Assembly (NCBI GenBank): GCA_001794205.1
Contig: MGJJ01000019.1
Location: forward strand, 1,353 to 65,352
Length of the DNA: 64,000 nucleotides
Reading direction: 5' to 3'
DNA from: Candidatus Yanofskybacteria bacterium RIFCSPHIGHO2_01_FULL_44_22
GTDB lineage: Bacteria > Patescibacteriota > Minisyncoccia > 2-02-FULL-40-12 > GWA2-44-9
Both the position numbers and the translations under genes were made by a program. The notes under the pieces were generated by a model. That model had not been told where the DNA came from. It did not search any database and saw nothing but the letters and a program-made list of their open reading frames with translations. Positions within the stretch are counted from its first letter, which is position 1. Every line of letters begins with the position of its first letter. Positions 4,187-39,643 of this stretch are shown piece by piece.

Positions 4187-5085
4187 AAATCGTAGTTACC
4201 GGCGGAGCGGGGTTTATCGGTTCTCATCTCGTAGATGCTCTCGTTGAGCGAGGGTTTAAGGTTCATGTAATTGACAATCTTTCCGGCGGGAAAAAAGAAA
4301 ATGTGAACAAGAAAGCCGTTCTCCATATCGCCGACATCCGCAATCTCAAAGAAATTAAACCTATCATCAGGGGCGCCGATTATGTTTTTCATCTTGCCGC
4401 CTTGCCGCGCGTTCAATATTCCATAGAAAATCCAGAAGAAACCCACGATGTAAATGTCAGCGGCACATTGAACGTTCTTTTGGCGGCTAAGGACGGCGGT
4501 GTCAAAAGAGTTATTTATTCCGCTTCAAGTTCGGCTTACGGCGACCAAAAAAGAATGCCCTTACTTGAAAATATGCCCGCCGCTCCTAAAAGTCCCTACG
4601 GTCTCCAAAAATATATCGGAGAATTATATTGCAGGCTTTTTTCGGAGGTTTACGGCCTGCCAACCGTTTCTTTGCGCTATTTCAATGTTTACGGTCCGAG
4701 ATTCAATCCCGAAGGGCCGTATGCTTTGGTAATCGGCAAGTTTATCCTCCAGCGCAAATTGGGCCAGCCGTTAACGATTACGGGCGACGGCAAACAGACC
4801 CGCGATTTTACTCATGTTTCCGATGTGGTGCTGGCGAATCTGTTGGCGATGGAAAGTAAAAAAGTCGGCCATGGTGAAGTGATGAATATAGGCGCTGGAA
4901 GCAACACCACAATCAACAAGTTGGCAAAATTAATCGGCGGTCAAAGTAAGCACATTGCGTTCCGCCTTGAACCCAAAAATACTCTTGCCGGCACCTCGTT
5001 GGCTTTTAAATTGTTGGGGTGGAAACCGCAAATTAAAACCGAAAACGGCATAAAACAACTTCTTCGCGAAGAGGGCCTGATATGA
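4183..5085 (+). CDS. NAD-dependent epimerase/dehydratase (UDP-sugar 4-epimerase-like)
   Basis: MKIVVTGGAGFIGSHLVDAL Rossmann start. YxxxK-type short-chain dehydrogenase/reductase (SDR) core (SPYGLQKYIGE). The ATGA start overlaps the upstream stop. Confidence 0.85.
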   Translation: MKIVVTGGAGFIGSHLVDALVERGFKVHVIDNLSGGKKENVNKKAVLHIADIRNLKEIKPIIRGADYVFHLAALPRVQYSIENPEETHDVNVSGTLNVLLAAKDGGVKRVIYSASSSAYGDQKRMPLLENMPAAPKSPYGLQKYIGELYCRLFSEVYGLPTVSLRYFNVYGPRFNPEGPYALVIGKFILQRKLGQPLTITGDGKQTRDFTHVSDVVLANLLAMESKKVGHGEVMNIGAGSNTTINKLAKLIGGQSKHIAFRLEPKNTLAGTSLAFKLLGWKPQIKTENGIKQLLREEGLI

Positions 5086-5098
5086 TATAATGGTCTGA

Positions 5099-6790
5099 AT
5101 GTTGTTGCGTCACAAAAAAATCAGAATATTTATCGGAGCGGCAATATTTTTGGCGGCTCTTTTTTTGTCGGCAAACATTCAAGTTTTGCCTGCGCAGGCG
5201 GGCGATATTCTCGGCCAAAATAAGAATTTTTTCGTGAACTCCGAATACGACAAATTCAATCGGACGCAAATTTCAGCCACATTGGCGGCCGTTTCGGAAC
5301 AAGCCTATTTTTTCATCGAGGATATTTATTGGAATGGTTTAAGTTTTGAGCGAAAAGAGGCCCTGATTTCCAACATTGCCCCTCTTGCCGGCGCGTTTGA
5401 TAATGACATTTATCCAAAAGAAAGGGAATTTTGGGGGTCGGAACCGAACCCAGGGGTGGATGGCGACTCCAAAATTACGATTGTCGTGGAACAATTGGTA
5501 AGCGGCAACGGTGGGTATTTTGATACTCTGAACGGTTATGACGCCCCCGAATCCAACAAAAGAGAAATGTTCTTCGTGAGCGCCGCCGCCGTGCAGGATA
5601 ACCTCCGAAACGCCAAAATATTTTTGGCCCACGAATTTCAGCATCTTGTTTCTTTTAACCAGAAAGATATTATGCGGAATATTTCCGAGGATGTGTGGCT
5701 GAACGAATTGCGCTCGGAATATTCAGTCACCATAGCGGGTTTTAATGAGCCTTATGCCGGTTCCGGTCTTGAAAGACGAGCTGAACTTTTCATGTCGCAG
5801 CCGTCAGACAGCCTGACGGAATGGCCCAACTCTTCGCTTGATTATGCCCAAGCGGCTTTGTTCGGAGAATATCTGGTGGAGCAATATGGGTCGGAAATAT
5901 TAAAAGATACTTTGCGCAGTTCCGCTGCGGGCATTGTTTCCATCAATCAGTTTTTGGCGGATAAAAATTATAAAGAACGGTTTGGCGACGTGTTCGGTAA
6001 TTGGGCAATTGCCAATTATTTGAACAGCGCCTCGGTCGATAAAAAATACGCCTACACCTTATCGGGTCTTCAAAGAGTAAAAGTAAATCCGGCCAGCAAC
6101 GTTTATTTGTCGGGCGCTTCGTATAATTTTTATGAAACCTTAAAGCCTTGGCAGGCGAACTGGCATAAATTCAACGTTGCCTCGTCGATTATGGATTCTA
6201 AAGCAATCAAAATTGATTTTGCCGCCGGTGCGCCGTTTAAGTTTTATTATGTCGATAATTTGGGACGGACGGGCGCCTTGGCTAATCCGGCTTATATTGA
6301 CGACCCCGGCGGACTGGCTGATTTTACGCTTATTCCCGTCAACCAAAGCAAAACATCTGACTTTAGTAAAAATGAACAAGCGGCGCCGATTACTTTCAGT
6401 ATTAATTTTGTGGAAAGCGGTTTGGGCCGTCGGCTGTCGATTATTGAGAACGGCTCTCTGATTAAAAAACCGAGAGAGGGTGAATTGTATGTGATTGAAG
6501 GAAAATATAAAAGATACTTAAGCGCCGGTGCGCTTGCATCATACGGCCATCTTGACCCGACCAAGGCTATCGAGGTTGACGAAGGAACGCTCAATTCTTA
6601 CACAACCGCGAATTATGTTCGCGCGCTGAACGACAAAAAAGTTTATGCGGTGTGGCCCGACGGGACTAAACACTGGCTTAACATGAGCGGCGAATATTTT
6701 ACTCAATCCGGCCGCGATTGGGGCTCCATTTTTACGATTAACGACGCCGAATTTCAGTTTTACAAAACCGGCCCGGATATTGTAAAATGA
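5099..6790 (+). CDS. Secreted hypothetical protein with HExxH motif (possible zincin-like metallopeptidase)
   Basis: N-terminal signal-like hydrophobic segment (IRIFIGAAIFLAALFLSANI). A single HEFQH motif follows a hydrophobic stretch (KIFLAHEFQHLV). I could not place it in a family. Confidence 0.5.
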   Translation: MLLRHKKIRIFIGAAIFLAALFLSANIQVLPAQAGDILGQNKNFFVNSEYDKFNRTQISATLAAVSEQAYFFIEDIYWNGLSFERKEALISNIAPLAGAFDNDIYPKEREFWGSEPNPGVDGDSKITIVVEQLVSGNGGYFDTLNGYDAPESNKREMFFVSAAAVQDNLRNAKIFLAHEFQHLVSFNQKDIMRNISEDVWLNELRSEYSVTIAGFNEPYAGSGLERRAELFMSQPSDSLTEWPNSSLDYAQAALFGEYLVEQYGSEILKDTLRSSAAGIVSINQFLADKNYKERFGDVFGNWAIANYLNSASVDKKYAYTLSGLQRVKVNPASNVYLSGASYNFYETLKPWQANWHKFNVASSIMDSKAIKIDFAAGAPFKFYYVDNLGRTGALANPAYIDDPGGLADFTLIPVNQSKTSDFSKNEQAAPITFSINFVESGLGRRLSIIENGSLIKKPREGELYVIEGKYKRYLSAGALASYGHLDPTKAIEVDEGTLNSYTTANYVRALNDKKVYAVWPDGTKHWLNMSGEYFTQSGRDWGSIFTINDAEFQFYKTGPDIVK

Positions 6791-7124: not shown

Positions 7125-7127
7125 TTG

Positions 7128-7150
7128 CGAGGGGCTTGCCCCTCGTTTTT
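7128..7150 (+). terminator. Rho-independent terminator after hpf (cgagggg-cttg-cccctcg followed by TTTTT)
   Basis: A 7-bp GC stem plus U-tract was read from the sequence. It overlaps the first, probably unused, part of the long secA ORF. Confidence 0.7.
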
Positions 7151-7154
7151 ACTT

Positions 7155-9920
7155 ATGAATTTTCTAAGCAAAATATTTGGAGACGCCAATGAGAGATATA
7201 TCAAATCGCTTCAGCCGATTGTCGTTCGAATAAACGGACTTGAGAAAGATTTTGAAAAACTTTCCGGCGAAGAACTAAAAAATAAAACGGCGGAATTTCG
7301 CAAACAATTAGCGGACGGCAAAACTCTTGACGCTCTCTTGCCCGAAGCGTTTGCGGCCGTCCGCGAGGCGTCAAAGCGTACGCTGAATCAGCGCCATTTT
7401 GACGTCCAACTGTTCGGCGGAATCGTCCTGCATCAAGGCAAAATTGCCGAAATGAAAACCGGCGAAGGCAAAACCCTTGTGGCGACGCTCCCGGCTTACC
7501 TGAATGCTATTACCGGCAAGGGTGTCCATATTGTTACAGTGAACGATTATCTTTCTCGTCGCGACGCCGTTTGGATGGGTCAGATTTACCACGCTCTCGG
7601 TTTGTCGGTGGGTTGTATCAACCACGATTCCAGTTTTTTATACGACCCCCGGCACAGCGAGAAAATACATGAATTGGAAAATAATAAATCCGACGCGCCT
7701 GTTCCAAGCCCCGAATCGGAAGAAGCGCTGTTGGACAAAGAAAGAGATTTGGCCGGCTCCTTTCACGTCGTTCACGAATTTTTAAGACCGGCAACGAGGA
7801 GAGACGCTTATGAGGCAGACATTACTTATGGCACCAACAACGAATACGGTTTTGATTATTTAAGGGACAATATGGCCTATGAATTGGCGGGCATAAGTCA
7901 ATCAAAGGGCCACCATTTTGCCATCGTTGACGAAGTTGATTCCATCCTTATTGACGAGGCTCGCACGCCCTTGATTATTTCGGCGCCGGACACGGAATCA
8001 ACCAAAATGTACGAGACATTTGCCAAAGTTGTGCCGAGATTGGTTGAAAATGACGATTATAATATTGATGAAAAATTAAAAGCTGTCTCAATTACCGAAA
8101 ACGGGATTGAAAAAGTGGAAAAAATGCTTGGCTTGAAAAATATTTACGAAGAAGGAGGCGTCAGAAACGTCCATCATTTGGAGCAAGCTCTAAAGGCGGA
8201 AATTTTATTCAAACGCGACAGGGATTACGTCGTAAAAGATGGAGAGGTGGTTATTGTGGATGAGTTTACCGGCCGGTTGATGCCCGGCCGGCGCTGGTCG
8301 GAAGGCCTTCATCAGGCGGTTGAAGCCAAAGAGGGGGTAAAAATAGAAAGAGAATCCCGCACTCTTGCCACCATTACTTTTCAGAATTATTTCCGCTTGT
8401 ACGATAAATTGGCGGGCATGACCGGAACCGCCCGGACTTCGGCCGAAGAGTTTCACAAAGTTTATAATCTCGGCGTGGTGGAAGTTCCCACGAATAAATT
8501 GATGATAAGAAAAAACGCGCCCGACAGGATTTATAAAACCGAGACCGGAAAATTTCGCGCCATTGTCAGGGAAATAAAAGAACGGCACGAAAAAGGCCAA
8601 CCGGTTCTTGTCGGCACCGTGTCAATAGAGAAAAACGAATTGCTTTCAGCTCTTTTGGGCCGTGAGGGGGTTCCTCATAATATTTTAAACGCGAAAAACC
8701 ACGAGAAAGAAGCTGAATTTATCGCCCAAGCCGGAAGATTATATTCGGTAACGGTGGCGACTAACATGGCCGGCCGGGGCGTGGATATAATTCTTGGAGG
8801 CACTCCTCCTGATGCTGGCGAGGCCAAAAAGGTTCGTGAAGCCGGAGGTCTGCATGTCATCGGCACCGAACGCCACGAGGCCAGGCGGATAGACGACCAG
8901 TTGCGCGGACGCGCCGGCCGGCAGGGCGACCCGGGTTCGTCCCAGTTTTTCATTTCAACCGAAGATGATTTGGCAAGAATATTCGGCGGAGACCGTTTGA
9001 AAAGAATTATGGAAACCTTGGGGGTAGGCGAGGACGATGTTATAGAAAACAGATTTGTTTCCAATGCCATTGGTCAGGCCCAGTCGCGGATTGAAGGCCA
9101 CAATTTTGATATTCGCAAATATGTCTTGGAATACGACGATGTAATGAACAAGCATCGCGAGGCGATTTACCGTCTGCGCAAAGATGTTTTATCGTCGGTG
9201 GGCAATAAAGAAAAAATATTGGAATATTTGGATAAACAGATTGAAAATATAGTAAATTTCCACACCCAAGGACAGGAGTATCAGTGGAACGTGGAAGAAA
9301 TCGCTGAATCGGTTAAAGCGCTGTCTGGTCTTGAATTGCATTCCGAACTTGTTGAAATCGCGAAAACCGGCAGTTCGGAAAAAGTGGGCGAATATCTCAA
9401 AACTCAAATTTCAAAACTTTATGAAGCAAAAGAGAAAGAACTTAACGCGGAAAATATGCGTCCCGAACGAAGCCGCGAGGGCACGCAGCGTGCTTCTGCT
9501 TCGTACGGGATGCGTCAGCTTGAGAAACTAGTTTTATTGAGAACGATTGACGAGTTGTGGATGGACCACATTGACGCGATGGAATATATGCGCGACTCGG
9601 TGCGTTTGAGGGCTTATGGCCAGAGGGACCCGCTGGTTGAATATAAAACAGAAGGCCACAAGATGTTTCAGCAATTAACCGGCGCGATTGAAGCGGAAGT
9701 GGCGAATTTGATATTCAAAGTCGGATTTTTTAATAAGCCCAAACAGGTAAAAACAGAAGAAGGCCGTCCAAATATAATTTCCGGCGAAGAAAACATGATT
9801 GAACAAGAATCCAGATTAAACTTAGACCAGCAACCGGTAGAAACTGAATCTAAAATCGGCAGAAATGAACTTTGTCCCTGTGGGTCGGGGAAGAAATATA
9901 AAAGGTGTCATGGGAAGTGA
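7155..9920 (+). CDS. secA: Preprotein translocase ATPase SecA
   Basis: Canonical SecA N-terminus (MNFLSKIFGDANERYIK). DEAD-like motor motifs (MKTGEGKTLVATLPAYLNA, IVDEVDSILIDEARTPLIIS). C-terminal zinc-binding tail (CPCGSGKKYKRCHG). The ATG at 7155 was chosen because the upstream ORF start overlaps the hpf terminator. Confidence 0.95.
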   Translation: MNFLSKIFGDANERYIKSLQPIVVRINGLEKDFEKLSGEELKNKTAEFRKQLADGKTLDALLPEAFAAVREASKRTLNQRHFDVQLFGGIVLHQGKIAEMKTGEGKTLVATLPAYLNAITGKGVHIVTVNDYLSRRDAVWMGQIYHALGLSVGCINHDSSFLYDPRHSEKIHELENNKSDAPVPSPESEEALLDKERDLAGSFHVVHEFLRPATRRDAYEADITYGTNNEYGFDYLRDNMAYELAGISQSKGHHFAIVDEVDSILIDEARTPLIISAPDTESTKMYETFAKVVPRLVENDDYNIDEKLKAVSITENGIEKVEKMLGLKNIYEEGGVRNVHHLEQALKAEILFKRDRDYVVKDGEVVIVDEFTGRLMPGRRWSEGLHQAVEAKEGVKIERESRTLATITFQNYFRLYDKLAGMTGTARTSAEEFHKVYNLGVVEVPTNKLMIRKNAPDRIYKTETGKFRAIVREIKERHEKGQPVLVGTVSIEKNELLSALLGREGVPHNILNAKNHEKEAEFIAQAGRLYSVTVATNMAGRGVDIILGGTPPDAGEAKKVREAGGLHVIGTERHEARRIDDQLRGRAGRQGDPGSSQFFISTEDDLARIFGGDRLKRIMETLGVGEDDVIENRFVSNAIGQAQSRIEGHNFDIRKYVLEYDDVMNKHREAIYRLRKDVLSSVGNKEKILEYLDKQIENIVNFHTQGQEYQWNVEEIAESVKALSGLELHSELVEIAKTGSSEKVGEYLKTQISKLYEAKEKELNAENMRPERSREGTQRASASYGMRQLEKLVLLRTIDELWMDHIDAMEYMRDSVRLRAYGQRDPLVEYKTEGHKMFQQLTGAIEAEVANLIFKVGFFNKPKQVKTEEGRPNIISGEENMIEQESRLNLDQQPVETESKIGRNELCPCGSGKKYKRCHGK
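9462..9509. mobile_element. 48-nt palindromic mini-element (MITE-like) inserted in-frame in secA, flanked by 6-bp direct repeat ATGCGT (9456-9461 and 9510-9515)
   Basis: Element cccgaacgaag...cttcgtacggg has an inner hairpin gcacgcagcgtgc. A near-identical copy lies in ruvA (27385-27432). It encodes PERSREGTQRASASYG inside an otherwise conserved SecA segment (NAENMR|QLEKLVLLRTIDELW). Confidence 0.6.
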
Positions 9921-10554: not shown

Positions 10555-11283
10555 TTGAACATGACAGCAAAAATCCAAAACACGATAAAAATATCCAGAA
10601 GTGGACTAAAATTATTTCTTGATTGCCCGAGGTGTTTTTGGCTGGATGTCCATCACAAGATAAAACGCCCGCCGGGATATCCGTATACTTTATCGGCGGC
10701 GGTGGATTATTTGGTGAAACAGGAATTTGACAAATATCGGGTGGACGGCAAGCTGCCGCCTGTTTTTGCGAAAGAAGAACTGGACGCAAAATTATTTTCC
10801 GGAGACAAACTGGCGGATTGGAGAAATAATTTTCGGGGCGTTTCATATTTTGATGAAAACCTGAACGCAATATTGTACGGCGCCGTTGATGATGTGCTTG
10901 AATTTTCCGACGGCTCTTTGGCGGTAGTTGATTATAAATCATCCGGTTCAAAAGAGATAACAATTTACGACGATTACCAAAAACAGATGGAGATTTATTC
11001 CTGGTTGTTGCAGAGAAACGGCTATCAAACCCAGCCCCACGCGTATTTTGTTTTTTATGTCGTCCAGAAAGACGGCGGCGGGTTTACCAATGTTTTGCCG
11101 TTCAGGGAAGAATTAAGGCGTGTTGACGTTAAACCTGATTGGGTCGGCGATACATTTGAAAGAGCGATAGAAACCGCGCGCCAGGAAACTGCGCCGGTAA
11201 ATTCCGACCATTGTGACCACTGTCATTATGTTGACCGGGTGGTAGAAGTTAGAGGGGCGATTCCTTGGGATAGCAATATTTAA
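10555..11283 (+). CDS. Cas4-like PD-(D/E)XK nuclease (RecB-family exonuclease fold with putative Fe-S Cys ligands)
   Basis: N-terminal Cys pair (CPRCFW). DxK motif (VVDYKSSGS). QxxxY-like motif (MEIYSWLL). C-terminal CDHCHY cysteines. This is the arrangement typical of Cas4/DUF83-type nucleases. Confidence 0.65.
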   Translation: MNMTAKIQNTIKISRSGLKLFLDCPRCFWLDVHHKIKRPPGYPYTLSAAVDYLVKQEFDKYRVDGKLPPVFAKEELDAKLFSGDKLADWRNNFRGVSYFDENLNAILYGAVDDVLEFSDGSLAVVDYKSSGSKEITIYDDYQKQMEIYSWLLQRNGYQTQPHAYFVFYVVQKDGGGFTNVLPFREELRRVDVKPDWVGDTFERAIETARQETAPVNSDHCDHCHYVDRVVEVRGAIPWDSNI

Positions 11284-11380
11284 AAACTCGAACTTTCACT
11301 ACCCGGTTGAAATGGCTTCCCAGCACAAAATTACGCCAGATTTAAACATTTAATTTTCCCCGTTTGTTCCATTCAACTCT

Positions 11381-11424
11381 TTTTCTATTATTTACCGTTC
11401 GTACGAACGGTAAATAATAGAAAA
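11381..11424. repeat. 44-nt perfect palindrome ttttctattatttaccgttc-gtac-gaacggtaaataatagaaaa (bidirectional terminator and/or operator)
   Basis: Read directly. It is flanked by T-run and A-run and shares arms (CTATTATTT) and core (TTCGTACGAA) with the palindrome at 12034-12088. Confidence 0.75.
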
Positions 11425-11495
11425 AGCGGAAGCGACTGTTCAAATATTCTGACATTCAAACAATGCTTGCGGAAACAATAAATGTTTAAAAATTC

Positions 11496-12029
11496 ATGAA
11501 AGAAAAATTTATTATTCAATTTTTAGAAGAATTGGTAAGTGCGCTTGGGGAGTTGAGTCGTTCTTTGAGCAGGATTTCTTATAAGGGATTCAGGTATAGC
11601 GATTTTAATACGAACTTGCTTGACCATGGTAAACGATACTCCGGTTTTAAAAATCTGGAACGGCGCGGCATTATAAGAAGAAAAAACGGCGATGAGTTTA
11701 TTTTTACAAAAAACGGGCAAAAGTGGTTTCAAGAATCGCATGCGCGATATTTTAAAAACAAAAACAACGGAAAATGGGACGGCAAGTGGCGAGTTGTGAT
11801 TTTTGACATTCCCCAAGAATTACACAAACAAAGAATAAAATTTCGGACAAAATTATTGAGCTTAGGCTTCAGCGCGTTGCAAAAGAGCGTTTTTGTTTTT
11901 CCTTATCCATGCGATAAGGAATTGGGGGACATATGTGAAAAGCTTGGTATAACTGATTATGTTGACAGGATTGTTGCCGAATCGATTGGTTTCTGCGAAT
12001 CGGGATTTCTTAAAAAATTTGGTTTATAG
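11496..12029 (+). CDS. PaaX-family-like transcriptional regulator (wHTH plus PaaX-type middle domain)
   Basis: WDGKWRVVIFDIPQELHKQRIKFRTKLLSLGFSALQKSVFVF resembles the PaaX WDGKW...GFG region. The N-terminal part is winged-helix-like. Confidence 0.6.
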   Translation: MKEKFIIQFLEELVSALGELSRSLSRISYKGFRYSDFNTNLLDHGKRYSGFKNLERRGIIRRKNGDEFIFTKNGQKWFQESHARYFKNKNNGKWDGKWRVVIFDIPQELHKQRIKFRTKLLSLGFSALQKSVFVFPYPCDKELGDICEKLGITDYVDRIVAESIGFCESGFLKKFGL

Positions 12030-12033
12030 CGTA

Positions 12034-12088
12034 ACACAATGTCCTATTATTTCTCTTTCGTACGAAAGAGAAATAATAGGACATTGTG
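12034..12088. repeat. 55-nt perfect palindrome cacaatgtcctattatttctctttcgtacgaaagagaaataataggacattgtg
   Basis: Read directly. Related to the 11381-11424 palindrome. It lies between the PaaX-like gene and the downstream nuclease gene. Confidence 0.75.
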
Positions 12089-12196
12089 GACAAAATGGCC
12101 AACAGCAGCAGAATCTTTACTCTGCATAAGGCCACACACGGCATAAGGCCGCACACACTCCTTTTTTAATTTAATACACCTGTTATTATTACTTGC

Positions 12197-13639
12197 ATGA
12201 ATCAAAAACCCAAAATCACCGCCGAGCATTTTTATAAATTTTTCCAGTGTCCGCACTGGATTTGGTATGACATTTACGGCGACGCCAAACAAAAAAAACA
12301 CACCCCGCCCCTTTTGGATATTATTTACAAAGGCAAAGTGTCCGAAGCTGAAAAAATTCTAAGCCAGCGCAAACAATTTGAACAGGTAAGGCCGGAGCTG
12401 ATGCGCGACATAGAGGAAGGTTTTTTGGCAACGCTTGAGCTGATGAAACAGGGCAAGAATATCTATCACGGCGTTTTGATGAATGAGGACTGGGTGGGAA
12501 TGCCGGATTTATTGGAAGCCAGACCGGGCAAGTCGGATTTGGGCGCTTGGCATTATGTCGTTTATGACGTTCAGCAGTCGCTTGAATTGCGGGATGAATT
12601 TCGTTTCCAGCTTGTTTTTTACAGCCTGATACTGGAACGGATACAAGGCGTGCGCCCGAGCCACGCTTATATCATAGACCCCGAAGGCAACGAGCGGGCC
12701 TTTTTAATTGACGATTATGTGGAGCAATTCCATCTGTCTCTTGCCCAGATTGAAAAAATTCTGGAAGGCGAAAAACCACTGCCGTTTTTGAAGAGCGGCT
12801 GTCGGCGTACTCCCTGGTATTCTCTTTGCGTTTCCGAAACGGAAGGCTGCAGCGACGTGTCGCTGGTTTACCGCTTGAGCCAGGCGGACCAACGCCACCT
12901 TTACGATATCGGCATAAAAACTATTTTTAATTTGGCTGAGGCCGATGTCAATGATTTAAGGATAAAACTCGAAGATTGGCCGTTCGACAAAATCGTGCGA
13001 TTAAACAATCAGGCCAAAGTGCTTGTTTCGCGGGAACCGCTTATATTAAAAAAGGGCGAATTTCCGTCCGTTAAGAATGAAATATATTTTGACATTGAGA
13101 GCGACCCGACCAGAGACATAGATTATCTGCTTGGTATTTTGGTCAAATCCGGTGGCAAGGGAAACGGTGAGTATCATTATTTTCTAGCCCACAACAAAGA
13201 GGAGGAACCGGAAATGTGGAAAAAGTTTCTGGATTTTCTCGCCGAACTCGACGACTTCGTTATCTATCATTACGCGTTTTACGAGAGGCGGGTTTTTGAC
13301 CGCTTGGCATCTCGCTATGGCGCTCCGGAAAGCTTGGTCGCCAAGTTTAGGGAGAATACGATTGATATCCACTTGAAACTGGTTGAATCGGCGGTTTTGC
13401 CCCTGTATTTTTACAGCCTCAAAGACGCGGCCAAATATTTGGGCTATCAATGGAACGACCCGGAAGCCGGCGGCGCCGAGTCGGTAGTTTGGTATAATGA
13501 TTGGTTGGACAAACACAATAACGCCGTTTTGAAAAAAATTCTCAAATACAACGAAGACGACGTCAGGGCGACTCTGCGTATTAAAGAATGGCTGGAAACG
13601 CAGGCGCCCAAAAAATCCAGAGAAAAATTGGAAGAATAA
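12197..13639 (+). CDS. TM0106-type putative nuclease: N-terminal Cas4-like PD-(D/E)XK domain fused to C-terminal RNase H-like (YprB-type) domain
   Basis: N-terminal FFQCPHWIWYD plus later Cys cluster (CRRTPWYSLC...C). The C-terminal segment has RNase H-like exonuclease signatures (EIYFDIESDP..., YHYAFYERR). Architecture is inferred. Confidence 0.6.
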   Translation: MNQKPKITAEHFYKFFQCPHWIWYDIYGDAKQKKHTPPLLDIIYKGKVSEAEKILSQRKQFEQVRPELMRDIEEGFLATLELMKQGKNIYHGVLMNEDWVGMPDLLEARPGKSDLGAWHYVVYDVQQSLELRDEFRFQLVFYSLILERIQGVRPSHAYIIDPEGNERAFLIDDYVEQFHLSLAQIEKILEGEKPLPFLKSGCRRTPWYSLCVSETEGCSDVSLVYRLSQADQRHLYDIGIKTIFNLAEADVNDLRIKLEDWPFDKIVRLNNQAKVLVSREPLILKKGEFPSVKNEIYFDIESDPTRDIDYLLGILVKSGGKGNGEYHYFLAHNKEEEPEMWKKFLDFLAELDDFVIYHYAFYERRVFDRLASRYGAPESLVAKFRENTIDIHLKLVESAVLPLYFYSLKDAAKYLGYQWNDPEAGGAESVVWYNDWLDKHNNAVLKKILKYNEDDVRATLRIKEWLETQAPKKSREKLEE

Positions 13640-17062: not shown

Positions 17063-18316
17063 GTGGAGCAACTAAGTTTTACTTTTGAGAGCCTGAATTC
17101 GGCTCTCGACATTCTCGCGTCTTTTTGGTGGATTTATTCCCCCTTTTTGCTTTTTTTCGGTTTGACTGCCGCATTCCAGACCTATACCAGAACGAAATAC
17201 ATCCAATCGCTCAAGTGGACGCTATTGGAGTTTCGAATTCCCAAAGAAATACGCAAAAGCCCCAAATCAACCGAGCAGATTTTTAATGCCTTGCACGGGG
17301 TTTTCATCCCTCTCAAATGGCACGAGAAATTTTTTCAGGGCAGGGTAATCGACTGGTTTTCTTTTGAAATTATCGGTTCCGGCGGAGAAATACATTTTTA
17401 CATAAGGACCCCTGAAGCCTATAAAAAGCTTGTCCAGTCCCAAGTATATGCCCAGTATCCGGACACGGAAATTAAAGAAGTGGCTGAAGAAAATGATTAC
17501 ATAACAAATTTATCCTCTTTTCTTCCCAATGATAAAAACGATATTTGGGGCGCGGAACTTGTTTTGAGCAAAGAAGACGCTTTTCCAATCAGAACTTATC
17601 CGGAATTTGAAGAAGTGGCGGTCGGTCGGGAGGACGTTAAAAGGGTTGACCCGATGGCCTCCTTGGCTGAAGTTTTAAGCAGTCTCCAATACGGGGAATT
17701 TATCGGCATTCAGCTTTTAATAAGGCCAACGGGAGATGCCTGGATTAAAAAAGGCCAGGCGGCAGTTGATAAAATAATGGGCAAGGAGGTCAAATCAAAG
17801 CCGGATTTTATGTCCAAACTGATTTTTGCTTTGGATGAATTTATTCCCGGCCATGTTCCTTCGACCCAAAAAGAAGAAAAAAGAGAATCGTCCCAGCTTA
17901 CGCCCGGCAAACAGGATATTTTGAAGGCGATGGAAAAAAGTTTTGCCAAGCTTGGTTTTGAAAGCGGCATTCGGTTTGTTTATACGGCGTCTAAAGAAGT
18001 TTTTCATCGCGCTCATATTTCCGGAGTCATGGGCGCTTACAAACAATTTACATCCCAATCGCTTAACGGCTTCAGAATGAATATCAAGACCGCTCCTTTG
18101 GCCAGGTGGCCGTTTAAAAAACAGAAAATTTTTAACAAGAAAAGAATTTTGTGGAAAAAATTCAGGAAAAGAATGATGACCGTAAGACCGTTTGTTCTGA
18201 ACGTGGAAGAACTGGCGACCATATTCCACTTCCCCGACTTTGGTGTTGAGGCGCCGCTTTTGCCGAGAGTGGAAACTAAAAAAGGCGAACCGCCGGTCGG
18301 ATTGCCGATATCGTAA
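17063..18316 (+). CDS. Hypothetical protein with single N-terminal TM helix (possible membrane partner of downstream ATPase)
   Basis: N-terminal hydrophobic segment ILASFWWIYSPFLLFFGLTAAF. No recognised domain. It sits 37 nt upstream of the VirD4-like gene. Confidence 0.45.
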   Translation: MEQLSFTFESLNSALDILASFWWIYSPFLLFFGLTAAFQTYTRTKYIQSLKWTLLEFRIPKEIRKSPKSTEQIFNALHGVFIPLKWHEKFFQGRVIDWFSFEIIGSGGEIHFYIRTPEAYKKLVQSQVYAQYPDTEIKEVAEENDYITNLSSFLPNDKNDIWGAELVLSKEDAFPIRTYPEFEEVAVGREDVKRVDPMASLAEVLSSLQYGEFIGIQLLIRPTGDAWIKKGQAAVDKIMGKEVKSKPDFMSKLIFALDEFIPGHVPSTQKEEKRESSQLTPGKQDILKAMEKSFAKLGFESGIRFVYTASKEVFHRAHISGVMGAYKQFTSQSLNGFRMNIKTAPLARWPFKKQKIFNKKRILWKKFRKRMMTVRPFVLNVEELATIFHFPDFGVEAPLLPRVETKKGEPPVGLPIS

Positions 18317-26808: not shown

Positions 26809-27156
26809 TCAGTTTCGCCTTAAACTTGGCCAAACGCGCAAGGTCCTAATAGTATAAAGATATAAAAACAACGGGTTTATCTTATCATACTCGGCTTTTT
26901 TATGCAATTTTTTGTTTTTGGGAAAAAATTCTTTTAGTTCTTTGTAGAGCTGGGCGGCAAGAGTTTTGTTGTGGGAAATGACCAATGTCGGCCGGCCGTA
27001 ATTTTCTATTACTTTTGCCAAGGTGAATGTTTTACCGGAACCGGTTACGCCCAAAAGCACCTGGTGTTTTTTTCCGGATTTCAAACCCTCGGCCAGTTTA
27101 GTTATCGCGGCTGGTTGGTCGCCAGTAGGTTGATATTTTGATGAAAGTTTGAACAT
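26809..27156 (-). pseudogene. uvrB: N-terminal remnant (~90 codons) of excinuclease ABC subunit B (uvrB); reading frame diverges after FFPKN and terminates
   Basis: [24 protein letters not shown]...[44 protein letters not shown] matches the UvrB N-terminus. The expected AVEYFVSYYDYYQPEAY continuation is absent in all three frames. Confidence 0.7.
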
Positions 27157-27246: not shown

Positions 27247-27885
27247 ATGATTAGCTTTCTTGAGGGCAAAATTGAATACTTGGGGGACAAATTCGTCATT
27301 TTAAGCGCGGGGGGCATAGGATATAAGGTGAGTATAGTCCCCAATCTGCTGAATATTCTATCAAAAAGTCAAGCCGGGGTCAACCCCGAACGAAGTCGCG
27401 AGGGCACGCAGCGCGCCTCTACTTCGTACGGGGTCAATACCGTTAAAATGTTTATCCATTCCCAGCTAAATATGCGGGAAGGCACCTTTGATTTGTATGG
27501 GTTTGATAAAAAAGAAGATTTGGACCTGTTTAATACTCTAATTTCCGTTTCCGGCATCGGACCCAAAAACGCTCTTAACATCATGTCATCGGTGGAACCG
27601 AGGCATCTTAAGGCGGCGGTGGTCAATGATGATGCCGATTTTTTGAAAAAAGTTTCCGGCCTTGGCCCAAAAACCGCCCAAAGATTAATTTTGGAATTGA
27701 AAAATAAAGTTGATTATTTGGAAGATATTGACGGACTTGATTTGGGACAGGAGGGCCATGCCATGGAGGCTTTGCTTGCCCTTGGTTACAGCGCAAATCA
27801 GGCGAAAGATGTTCTCAAAGAAGCAAAAGGAGAGACGCTGGAGAATCGGGTGCGAGATGCGTTAAAAATTTTAGGGAAGAAATGA
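27247..27885 (+). CDS. ruvA: Holliday junction DNA helicase subunit RuvA (carrying an 18-aa in-frame mini-element insertion in domain I)
   Basis: MISFLEGKIEY start. HhH motifs (ISVSGIGPKNALNIMS, VSGLGPKTAQRLILELK). C-terminal RuvB-interaction helix (LALGYSANQAKDVLKE). The ATG at 27247 is preferred over the upstream ORF start. Confidence 0.85.
   Translation: MISFLEGKIEYLGDKFVILSAGGIGYKVSIVPNLLNILSKSQAGVNPERSREGTQRASTSYGVNTVKMFIHSQLNMREGTFDLYGFDKKEDLDLFNTLISVSGIGPKNALNIMSSVEPRHLKAAVVNDDADFLKKVSGLGPKTAQRLILELKNKVDYLEDIDGLDLGQEGHAMEALLALGYSANQAKDVLKEAKGETLENRVRDALKILGKK
27385..27432. mobile_element. Second copy of the 48-nt palindromic mini-element, in-frame in ruvA; flanked by direct repeat GGGGTCAA (27376-27383 / 27430-27437), total insertion 54 nt
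   Basis: cccgaacgaagtcgcgagggcacgcagcgcgcctctacttcgtacggg matches the secA copy at about 44 of 48 positions. It encodes PERSREGTQRASTSYG and duplicates codons G-V-N. Confidence 0.6.
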
Positions 27886-28859: not shown

Positions 28860-30163
28860 TGTTCAAAGAAGGTCTATTGGATAAAATTTTATATAAAGTT
28901 AAAAAGCTGATTCCGAAATCGGTTTTTAATTTTTTTGCACCGCTTTATCATGCCGGCTTAGCTTATGCCGGAGCGGTAATTTACGGGTTTCCGTCCCGTA
29001 AAATGAAAGTAATCGGCGTTACGGGAACCAAAGGCAAATCAACGACGGTGTTTTTAATAGCAAAAATTTTGGAAAATTCCGGCAAGAAAGTTGCCGCTAT
29101 CGGTTCGCTCGGATTTAAAATAAAAGAACGGGAATGGCCCAATACTTTGAAAATGACCATGCCGGGCCGTTTTAAATTGCAGAAATTTCTTCGGGAAGCC
29201 CGAAAGGCCGGCTGCAAATATGTCGTGTTGGAAGTCACCTCCGAGGGCATCAAACAGAAAAGACATCTTGGAATTAAATTTGACTGCGCCGTTTTTACGA
29301 ATTTGCATAAGGAACATATAGAAAACCACGGCTCCTTTGAAAATTACAGGAAAGCAAAAGAAGAACTGTTCAGGCTCACCCCAAACAATCATGTATTGAA
29401 TGCCGATGACGCATCGGTTGAACATTTCAGCAAGTACTCCGCCGATAAAAAAATACTCTTTGGAATAAAAGGCGGCGATATGAAAGCAAGCTGCATTGTC
29501 AGCGGCAAAATGGGCGTGGAATTTGAAATTTACGGCACCATGTTTAAAACCAAGCTCTTCGGCGAATTCAATGTTTATAATTGTTTGGCGGCGCTTTCCG
29601 TCGGGGCGGTTTACGGTCTTGATTTGCCGGCGATGAAACCGGCGATTGAAAGAATCGAGGAAATTCCCGGCCGAATGCAGTTTGTGCAAAAAGAGCCGTT
29701 TGCGGTAGTGGTGGATTATGCCCATACGCCGGACTCGCTGGAAAGCGTCTATAAAGCGCTTTCAAGTCCAAAACCTCAAAGGTTGATTTGCGTTTTGGGG
29801 GCGGCGGGAGGCGGGAGGGATAAGTGGAAAAGGCCGGAGTTCGGCAGAATCGCGAAAAAATATTGTGATGAAATAATATTAACAAATGAAGACCCGTACG
29901 ACGAGAACCCGCTTTCAATTTTAAAAGAAATTGAAAGCGGGTTCTCGCAATTACCAATTACCAATTACCAATTACCAAATTATGAAATAATTCTTGACCG
30001 GCGGGAGGCGATAAAAAAGGCGATAAACAACGCGGAAACGGGTGACACGGTGATTATTACCGGCAAAGGTTCGGAAACGTCCATAGCCGTGTCAGGTGGC
30101 AGAAGAATTCCCTGGTCTGACGCTCAAATCGTCCGGGAGCTGATTGACGCAGCCAGCCGATAG
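28859..30163 (+). CDS. Mur ligase family protein (MurE/MurT-like; central ATPase domain without a long N-terminal domain)
   Basis: P-loop KVIGVTGTKGKSTTVFLIA. Mur ligase middle domain (DYAHTPDSL) and C-terminal domain. Confidence 0.8.
   Translation: MFKEGLLDKILYKVKKLIPKSVFNFFAPLYHAGLAYAGAVIYGFPSRKMKVIGVTGTKGKSTTVFLIAKILENSGKKVAAIGSLGFKIKEREWPNTLKMTMPGRFKLQKFLREARKAGCKYVVLEVTSEGIKQKRHLGIKFDCAVFTNLHKEHIENHGSFENYRKAKEELFRLTPNNHVLNADDASVEHFSKYSADKKILFGIKGGDMKASCIVSGKMGVEFEIYGTMFKTKLFGEFNVYNCLAALSVGAVYGLDLPAMKPAIERIEEIPGRMQFVQKEPFAVVVDYAHTPDSLESVYKALSSPKPQRLICVLGAAGGGRDKWKRPEFGRIAKKYCDEIILTNEDPYDENPLSILKEIESGFSQLPITNYQLPNYEIILDRREAIKKAINNAETGDTVIITGKGSETSIAVSGGRRIPWSDAQIVRELIDAASR
29947..29980 (+). 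repeat. Heptanucleotide simple-sequence repeat (caattac)x4 plus partial copy, inside the Mur ligase coding region
   Basis: Read directly. It encodes LPITNYQLPNYEI. The unit length is not a multiple of 3. Confidence 0.85.
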
Positions 30164-39317: not shown

Positions 39318-39420
39318 CCGCTTCGCTTTGCCTCCTCCTGCATTTTCCATGCTTCGAAGCATCCTACAACCTCCTCCGCGCTTCGGAGCGCCGTCTTTTT
39401 TCAATCTGCTCGGCCGTTTA

Positions 39421-39462
39421 GGATAAACAAGGGATTTCTTGCAAGAAATCCCTTGTTTATCC
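39421..39462. repeat. 42-nt perfect palindrome ggataaacaagggatttctt-gcaagaaatcccttgtttatcc nested inside an 11-bp inverted repeat (gccgtcttttt 39390-39400 / aaaaagacggc 39483-39493)
   Basis: Read directly. It lies in a 325-nt noncoding region that also holds a 14-nt palindrome atgcttcgaagcat (39348-39361) and the hairpin gcgcttcggagcgc (39378-39391). Confidence 0.8.
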
Positions 39463-39643
39463 TGGCCTGCGAGAACTTATTCAAAAAGACGGCACATCCT
39501 CCGCCGGTTGATTGTGTAAGTGGCTGATGCTTGAGCGAGAAAGGTCAAACGAATCAATACATCCGAGGCACTTGAGAAGGTGAGGAGGGGGCAAGAAAAT
39601 GGGGCGGAGCGGTGATTGAGTAAAATCATGCTATAATAATTCC

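Follow-up and report, generated by a model that had tools for sequence, protein, structure and literature searches.

What kind of sequence is the GC-rich palindrome that lies in frame within the ruvA gene of Candidatus Yanofskybacteria bacterium RIFCSPHIGHO2_01_FULL_44_22, and how did it come to be there? The locus belongs to a stretch of 64,000 nt from contig MGJJ01000019.1 (assembly GCA_001794205.1, positions 1,353 to 65,352), which was analyzed as a whole and is called the window here. An original prediction, made from the letters of the window, held that ruvA and secA each carry a copy of one transposed 48-nt mini-element. The analysis below leads to the reading, which we consider probable, that the insert in ruvA represents a single copy of a non-autonomous DNA transposon of Candidate Phyla Radiation (CPR, Patescibacteria) genomes, similar to transposable elements of the miniature inverted-repeat kind (MITEs).

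The ruvA and secA copies

The host gene ruvA (27247..27885, plus strand; ATG at 27247) encodes 212 amino acids with the Pfam domains RuvA_N, HHH_5, and RuvA_C. A 48-nt GC-rich imperfect palindrome, CCCGAACGAAGTCGCGAGGGCACGCAGCGCGCCTCTACTTCGTACGGG, with zero occurrences expected in 100 shuffles, occupies positions 27385-27432 of the plus strand, and the open reading frame (ORF; 27193/27247..27885, plus strand) reads through it (...SKSQAGVN-PERSREGTQRASTSYG-VNTVKMF...), the insert being residues 47-64 (PERSREGTQRASTSYG and the duplicated VN). The single further copy found by blastn-short in the window is the 48-mer at 9462-9509 in secA (7125..9920, plus strand), with ATGCGT on either side and in the same frame as in ruvA; the two in-frame copies of the original prediction are thus confirmed in sequence. 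Taken as T + 48-mer + A (9461..9510, plus strand), the sister element is identical to the ruvA copy at 44/48 positions. All four differences are transitions; one stem base pair accounts for two of them, C/T at position 12 and G/A at position 37.

The flanking duplications of the two copies differ, as predicted. In ruvA, TCAA is repeated at 27380..27383 on the left and 27434..27437 on the right (plus strand; in a 6-nt reading, GTCAAC at 27379-27384 and GTCAAT at 27433-27438), around C + 48-mer + G at 27384..27433 (plus strand), which gives the arrangement G-TCAA-[C-48-G]-TCAA-T. In secA, TGCG is repeated at 9457..9460 and 9511..9514 (plus strand; as ATGCGT, 9456-9461 and 9510-9515). The 8-nt direct repeats GGGGTCAA, formerly taken to flank the ruvA insert, are present at 27376-27383 and 27430-27437, but half of this repeat is coincidental: the right GGGG is the element's own end, while the left GGGG is native ruvA sequence (GCC GGG GTC) and reads GGTG in L001, a strain with 99.5% identity, and in L005; hence, only G|TCAA|Y is the site duplication in ruvA, and an 8-bp duplication was rejected.

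Empty alleles are observed at both sites. Some of the 120 RuvA homologues compared (64-97% identity) have no insert at all; one of them, L037 (P0006), reads GTCAAC CCC GTA AAA TTA, whereas the filled alleles read GTCAAC[48]GTCAAT ACC GTT AAA ATG in the window and GTCAAC[48]GTTGAC CCC GTT AAA ATG in L005, so that empty and filled ruvA differ by exactly 54 nt, at G|TCAA|C. In SecA, the 18 residues are missing from all 60 closest homologues (...G.E.-MRQLEKLVLLR..., against MR-PERSREGTQRASASYG-MR in the window); therefore, the secA insertion is private to the lineage of the window. The RuvA protein of the window also has an exact match on a JGI metagenome contig.

Dispersal and target duplication

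A scan of GTDB species genomes with a purine/pyrimidine-degenerate 48-mer as the query gave 10 matches in six assemblies, whose records are titled Candidatus Yanofskybacteria (four), Paceibacteria, and Saccharibacteria. Metagenome contigs, including those of JGI and ENA, were scanned with a 36-nt degenerate core, the ends left free, and yielded 25 further loci, many of them one locus across different samples. Collapsed, and with diverged copies from nhmmer added, the genome and metagenome matches form 24 distinct insertion sites in at least six CPR genome assemblies and metagenomes, each with its own pattern of flank duplication; copies are at least 90% identical between assemblies titled as different CPR classes. 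The sole copy in the Saccharibacteria-titled assembly (L002, 4131-4178) lies between two genes that are on the strand opposite to it.

Directly left of the 48-mer stands a Y (C/T) and directly right of it an R (G/A) without exception, the two being complementary at 24/24 sites. Mismatches between the 6-nt flanks number 8, 2, 1, 3, 3, and 14 at positions 1-6; the 4-bp core is duplicated at 23 of the 24 sites, in about ten different sequences (TCAA, TGCG, TTGA, TGAA, CAAG, CTTA, TACA, TTCG, TGGA, TAAA); and the flank consensus R, T, N, N, A, Y corresponds to an R|TNNA|Y target. The most fitting description of the unit is a 50-nt hairpin (YCCCGAACGA...TCGTACGGGR) whose closing pair varies, together with a 4-bp target duplication, 54 nt in total. 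The length of the duplication is ambiguous, 4 bp being certain and 5-6 bp possible; given the mismatch pattern and the invariable complementarity, 4 bp plus a variable terminal pair is preferred to 6 bp, and the 54-nt total proposed originally stands with either.

An origin that involves no mobility at all, that is, a template-switch palindrome, a local duplication, gene conversion between secA and ruvA, or an assembly chimera, is hardly credible. Palindromes of the template-switch kind do exist in these genomes (in the Mur ligase gene at 29902-29947 and in the RuvA insert of L043), but one sequence of 48-50 nt is found here at 24 unrelated sites, in independent JGI, ENA, NCBI, and Logan assemblies, and sharing of flanks is limited to the 4-6 nt duplication, which is different at each site, so that for the family this origin is already refuted. 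As the copies come from independent projects and assemblers, an assembly artefact is ruled out. The original prediction had argued for transposition against gene conversion, naming two copies with a longer shared flank as the case that would suggest a local duplication or an assembly chimera, and is upheld in this respect.

Hairpin structure and covariation

Predicted RNA folding energies are -28.9 kcal/mol for the ruvA copy (27376-27437; z -2.7 against shuffles) and -35.8 kcal/mol for the secA copy (z -4.3). The alignment of 23 different copies has a mean column identity of 91%, and base pairs were counted on a hairpin derived in this analysis. Over the 23 copies, 96% of the hairpin cells are paired; in the outer stem, of 13 nt with one conserved A-A mismatch, the proportion is 99%. 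Covariation with (almost) no broken cells is seen for pairs 1-50 (U-A in 13 copies, C-G in 10), 11-40 (G-C in 14, A-U in 9), 12-39, and 13-38; the covariation values are reached in 0/500 shuffles, and slid controls fall to 32-52% paired. Mismatches of the G-U and A-C types have similar frequencies, hence nothing points to one transcribed strand. Rfam has no match, at gathering thresholds, at the element in the window or at six loci, nor in a permissive scan of the long form described below.

Host genes and reading frames

Genomic contexts were assigned by ORF analysis and Pfam. Copies read in sense frame 0 are found in SecA, RuvA (two alleles), Pgk (L006), Obg (L009), RecO (L023), the N-terminus of ribosomal protein S1 (L032), and a membrane protein (L036), to which a peptide search adds four short database proteins in the same frame (P0122, P0123, P0125, and, with altered ends, P0124). 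Sense frame 2 is used in a class-V aminotransferase/NifS-like enzyme (L011) and in the C-terminal tail of a TrwB/VirD4-like ATPase (L003); two copies are antisense yet in frame, in a membrane protein (L029) and the N-terminus of MiaA (L010). Others are intergenic or 5' of genes (L002, L007, L008, L010, L021, L034, L005b), lie at start codons (ATGAA; L017, L032), or are nested in another repeat (L004, L022/L019, L026); intergenic sites and those nested in other elements make up about one third of the total. With the peptide-search matches left out, gene-borne copies are mildly biased toward sense, about 10 vs 2.

Copies of the ruvA/secA type, read by eye, are stop-free in 5/6 frames, and the variant with the GAGGC stem in 6/6. 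Because every event adds 54 nt, or 18 codons, the frame is kept without selection; the selection for frame-preserving insertions proposed earlier is unnecessary, about a third of the sites being intergenic or nested, and the role of selection is rather the removal of insertions where an 18-residue loop harms the protein. Similarly, the observation that ruvA and secA encode the same peptide holds for this pair, which is read in one frame, but does not extend to the family (frame 2 in L003 and L011; antisense in L029 and in MiaA of L010). The shared peptide as a selected feature was rejected in view of the intergenic copies, other frames, and antisense copies. The DNA sequence and the target preference together account for the common peptide, PERSREGTQRAS.SYG; here, an RTN NAY target in frame gives Val/Ile/Met followed by Asn/Asp.

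Matching codons on both sides of the insert (GTC AAC / GTC AAT in ruvA, ATG CGT / ATG CGT in secA) would also suit recoding, in which the 54 nt would be cut out of the mRNA or skipped by the ribosome, with the duplicated codons as take-off and landing sites and the hairpin at the take-off site. The inserts of T4 gene 60 and the mitochondrial byps of Magnusiomyces, the latter mobile, are GC-rich hairpins of about 30-55 nt in essential genes, with matching flanking codons; the stable hairpin directly after the first matching codon and a gap size near the 50 nt of gene 60 add to the likeness. Unlike the bypassed inserts, the CPR insert leaves the frame open, no stop following the first matching codon, and there is no obvious hungry codon after the putative take-off site either, the next codons being CCC GAA CGA. 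The frame is open in every coding copy seen, so ordinary translation suffices, and the flanking repeat is fully accounted for as a target duplication, which is also present at intergenic copies. Recoding is highly improbable on this evidence; the inserted loops are presumably translated rather than removed.

The insertion site in RuvA

In an AlphaFold model of RuvA, based on a 60-sequence alignment (mean predicted local distance difference test score, pLDDT, 72), residues 41-65 form a coil between helix 32-40 and strand 66-75 of domain I, and not between β-strands of the OB-fold, where the insert had been placed initially. The expectation that it would lie in a loop is borne out by the model, pLDDT being below 50 for residues 43-62 while the neighboring elements are well predicted. 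In solved RuvA structures, residues 1-39 correspond to query residues 1-39 and residues 44 onward to query residues 68 onward, the insert having no counterpart. The SecA insert adjoins, on its N-terminal side, the conserved MRxxEK...WMDHID helix of the wing/scaffold region, standing directly before MRQLEKLVLLRTIDELWMDHI. A tolerated surface loop would suit both positions. The two hosts had been described as essential genes; ruvA, however, is nonessential in model bacteria.

Most of the 120 RuvA homologues carry other inserts, of about 6-40 residues, at the same position. Several of these inserts after ..SKSQxxVN are CCYG...CGGG palindromes beside a GTCAA repeat (P0001-P0120; L038, L039, L041-L044). 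L038 has a different 48-nt palindrome, CCTGTTAAA...TTTAACGGG, between GTCAAC and GTCAAG; L042 has a 72-nt palindrome, CCCGTTAGAGGT...ACCTCTAACGGG; L041 has a 29-nt hairpin, CCCGAAAAG...CTCGGG; and L039 has 36 nt with GTCAA repeats on either side. These four inserts are singletons in the DNA compared. L040 carries the same 50-nt element as the window, and its right flank differs, which is most easily accounted for if the element inserted independently into a ...VKLF allele. The insert of L043 (10001-10636) includes native upstream sequence copied in inverse orientation (AAAATCAACCCCA / TGGGGTTGATTTT), and resembles the product of a template switch more than a transposon. Extra VNP codons in some of the empty ruvA alleles might be excision footprints.

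Related forms, abundance, and the putative mobilizing enzyme

Other elements have termini of the type YCCCGWACGA...TCGWACGGGR and the same kind of duplication, in forms of about 180, 60, and 47 nt. The approximately 180-nt long form always stands directly 5' of start codons (A|TGAA, A|TGGA) of unrelated genes, for WbaP-like, cyclophilin, HPF, cupredoxin-like, and NifS proteins, has its own 4-6 nt flank duplication (L022, 6144-6310; L019, 1742-1974; L026, 3324-3543; L005, 3999-4178; L004, 7549-7700), and hosts nested 50-mers and a 60-nt relative. The 60-nt form is seen in L019 and L005, the 47-nt form in L023. Forms that have common ends and are nested or in tandem with the 50-mer are the pattern expected of non-autonomous families that depend on one mobilization machinery. 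In RecO of L023 (519-619), the 47-nt form and the 50-mer stand in tandem with one common TGAA repeat, both in frame. Termini-like matches at window positions 29893 and 30137 turned out to be native Mur ligase coding sequence, and a match in the GC-rich phage L045 was due to chance.

The many copies genome-wide that two insertions in one window had seemed to imply are not seen: there are two in the 64 kb here, and at most three to four per related genome in the stretches examined (three matches on the 339-kb contig JACPNJ010000005, three to four in assembly MGLG01). Among 5.8 billion proteins, 34 share 5-residue words with the peptide, five of them with E below 10, in a search with a concatenated 54-aa query that is not a census. 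The sequences at hand indicate an element of low abundance.

A probable non-autonomous transposon and its difficulties

The element is short, has terminal inverted repeats, site-variable duplications and empty sites, and occurs as dispersed copies, all of which are features of MITEs. In the mechanism that we propose, the element would be the 50-nt imperfect palindrome YCCCGAACGARRY-CGC-GAGGGCAC-GCAGC-GTGCCTC-T-RYYTCGTACGGGR, moved by a hypothetical trans-acting transposase encoded elsewhere and integrated at R|TNNA|Y with duplication of the central 4 bp, each event adding 54 nt or 18 codons. Insertion into a gene would never break the frame, since the length is a multiple of three and the sequence nearly stop-free, and would add a hydrophilic, probably disordered 18-residue loop; insertions would persist where such a loop is tolerated, as in RuvA domain I (the coil that follows helix 1), in SecA (the wing region), and at N-termini. 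The element would be essentially selfish.

Several results weigh against this reading. The L002 copy has no recognizable duplication (AAGACC / GTCAAT). The base outside the left duplication equals the last base of the element at 16/24 sites, which is above chance, and the terminal pair, C-G or T-A, switches independently of the internal subtype; neither is predicted by a model of cut-and-paste with fixed ends. Further, no transposase or recombinase domain is detected by Pfam in the approximately 50 window ORFs, the two element ends spaced at 0.5-3 kb that would mark an autonomous copy do not occur in 360 kb of related DNA, and the element was not found on viral contigs (core search) or on plasmid and phage records (blastn); the candidate transposase acting in trans that the original prediction had proposed to look for was found in none of these sets. 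The ends starting with CC and the 4-bp duplication resemble those of IS1380/piggyBac-type enzymes, which is a lead only and not a result. Finally, the element is identical at 48/48 positions between the window and L005, while the ruvA gene is 89.5% identical (P=0.005), and at 47/48 between the window and L040, with ruvA at 80.6% (P=0.0004). Conservation of the element above that of its host gene requires recent independent insertions at a hot spot, homogenization among copies, or constraint on the hairpin, and is unexpected for a purely neutral parasite.

The last of these options corresponds to a domesticated hairpin, mobile in origin, whose copies are kept for a role in DNA or RNA, such as protein binding, RNA processing or stability, or a signal in replication or recombination. 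Such a role would agree with an element far more conserved than the surrounding ruvA, with compensatory stem changes that leave almost no broken pairs, with identity of at least 90% across assemblies titled as different CPR classes, and with the mild sense bias (about 10 vs 2). It fits less well with the empty Rfam result and with the near-equal G-U and A-C mismatches, which give no strand-specific RNA signal; the positions are heterogeneous (ORFs in several frames, 5' regions, intergenic sites, and nested in repeats), the copy number is low, the presence among orthologues is patchy, and recent independent insertions also account for the conservation. Overall, we regard a retained function as unlikely.

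It is also rather improbable, in our estimate, that the CCCG...CGGG hairpins are not ordinary MITEs at all, being instead substrates of a CPR-specific insertion system that recognizes shape. Were this so, different hairpins would enter at R|TNNA|Y, hot spots would be re-used, the terminal pair would be fixed at each event, and whole codons would be added, so that proteins encoded by minimal genomes would be furnished steadily with new surface loops; selection acting on the hairpin would then account for the element being more conserved than the host gene. Hot-spot re-use, the variable terminal pair, conservation above the host gene, and the lack of a visible transposase are the features of the MITE-like element that may hide a less ordinary process, and its mobilizing enzyme would be of interest if it recognizes a hairpin rather than a sequence.

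Comparison with known palindromic elements

Among hairpin elements, the repetitive extragenic palindromic (REP) sequences and bacterial interspersed mosaic elements mobilized by REP-associated tyrosine transposases, as well as the palindrome-associated elements of the IS200/IS605 type, are likewise short imperfect palindromes, probably recognized by shape as much as by sequence. REPs are extragenic, have a conserved GTAG, and lack a target duplication, whereas the CPR copies are often intragenic, end in CCCG...CGGG, and have a duplication. Elements of the IS200/IS605 type insert beside one fixed tetra- or pentanucleotide without duplication, while the 4-mer targeted by the CPR element varies and is duplicated.

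Rickettsia palindromic elements (RPEs) and, alongside them, bacterial MITEs are the systems that the CPR element appears to resemble most closely. RPEs are palindromic repeats of about 150 bp, in ten families, described from Rickettsia only, with 44 intragenic copies in Rickettsia conorii (PMC10969869). Similarly to RPEs, the CPR element is palindromic, non-coding, and dispersed, is inserted in frame into unrelated housekeeping genes (SecA, RuvA, Pgk, Obg, RecO, S1, MiaA, NifS-like, TrwB-like) with a fold-compatible peptide (PMC10969869), and inhabits small, reduced genomes. Unlike RPEs, it measures 50 nt, is seen in 2-4 copies per genome, and has a clear 4-bp duplication; its length and its hosts, which are CPR by record titles, set it apart from the RPE families of Rickettsia (about 100-150 bp). 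With bacterial MITEs (Correia/NEMIS, ERIC, RUP, Nezha, Chunjie) it shares terminal inverted repeats, target duplication, non-coding sequence, dispersal, nesting, and occasional in-frame fusion to ORFs (PMC10969869). It differs from them in being a mere hairpin at the extreme small end of the size range, in being exactly 18 codons long and almost stop-free, and in its variable terminal base pair; also, no parent insertion sequence with matching ends was found for it in the 360 kb of related DNA.

In a full-text literature search, no paper connected CPR/Patescibacteria with MITEs or with in-frame elements of the palindromic type, and these bacteria go unmentioned in the MITE review (PMC10969869); the family is apparently undescribed. 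CPR/Patescibacteria have tiny genomes, usually described as poor in mobile DNA. The entry of a 50-nt element into secA, obg, pgk, recO, and ruvA without disruption suggests that in-frame "selfish DNA", so far seen mainly in Rickettsia, also shapes CPR proteins. Inserts of this kind make proteins seem more divergent than they are, confuse alignments, and can pass for lineage-specific motifs; the presence or absence of the element may serve as a strain marker. In the RuvA loop, where one site collects many different small inserts, the origin of lineage-specific loops becomes testable.

Other palindromes and neighboring features

The Mur ligase gene of the window contains, at 29902-29947, a perfect hairpin with 20-nt arms (DENPLSILKEIESGFS), the gene being unchanged in length relative to orthologues. 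The hairpin is followed, within the region 29902-29978, by (CAATTAC)x4, which encodes QLPITNYQLPNY; ITNY stretches are seen at another position of the Mur ligase in orthologues L039 and L043. Next to ruvA, only an 82-residue N-terminal remnant of uvrB is present (26809-27156, minus strand), where relatives have a full 670-aa uvrB; the gene looks deleted or decayed in this genome.

Spacerless perfect palindromes are found at 11379-11426 (48 nt), 12035-12088 (54 nt), and 39420-39463 (44 nt). The first two are mutually related (CTATTATTT..TTCGT|ACGAA..) and stand on either side of a PaaX-like gene, which has a Cas2-like domain and whose neighbors are a PD-(D/E)XK nuclease gene and a gene with an RNase_H_2 domain (10555-13639). 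The 84 nt at 17650-17733 have CCCG...CGGG ends and 12-nt arms paired at 10/12 positions, have no flank duplication, and lie in an ORF without a Pfam match; this stretch may be an unrelated or decayed hairpin insert. In L022, the match to RNase P RNA (4697-5287) spans 591 nt against a model of 367 positions, so this RNA probably carries one or more insertions.

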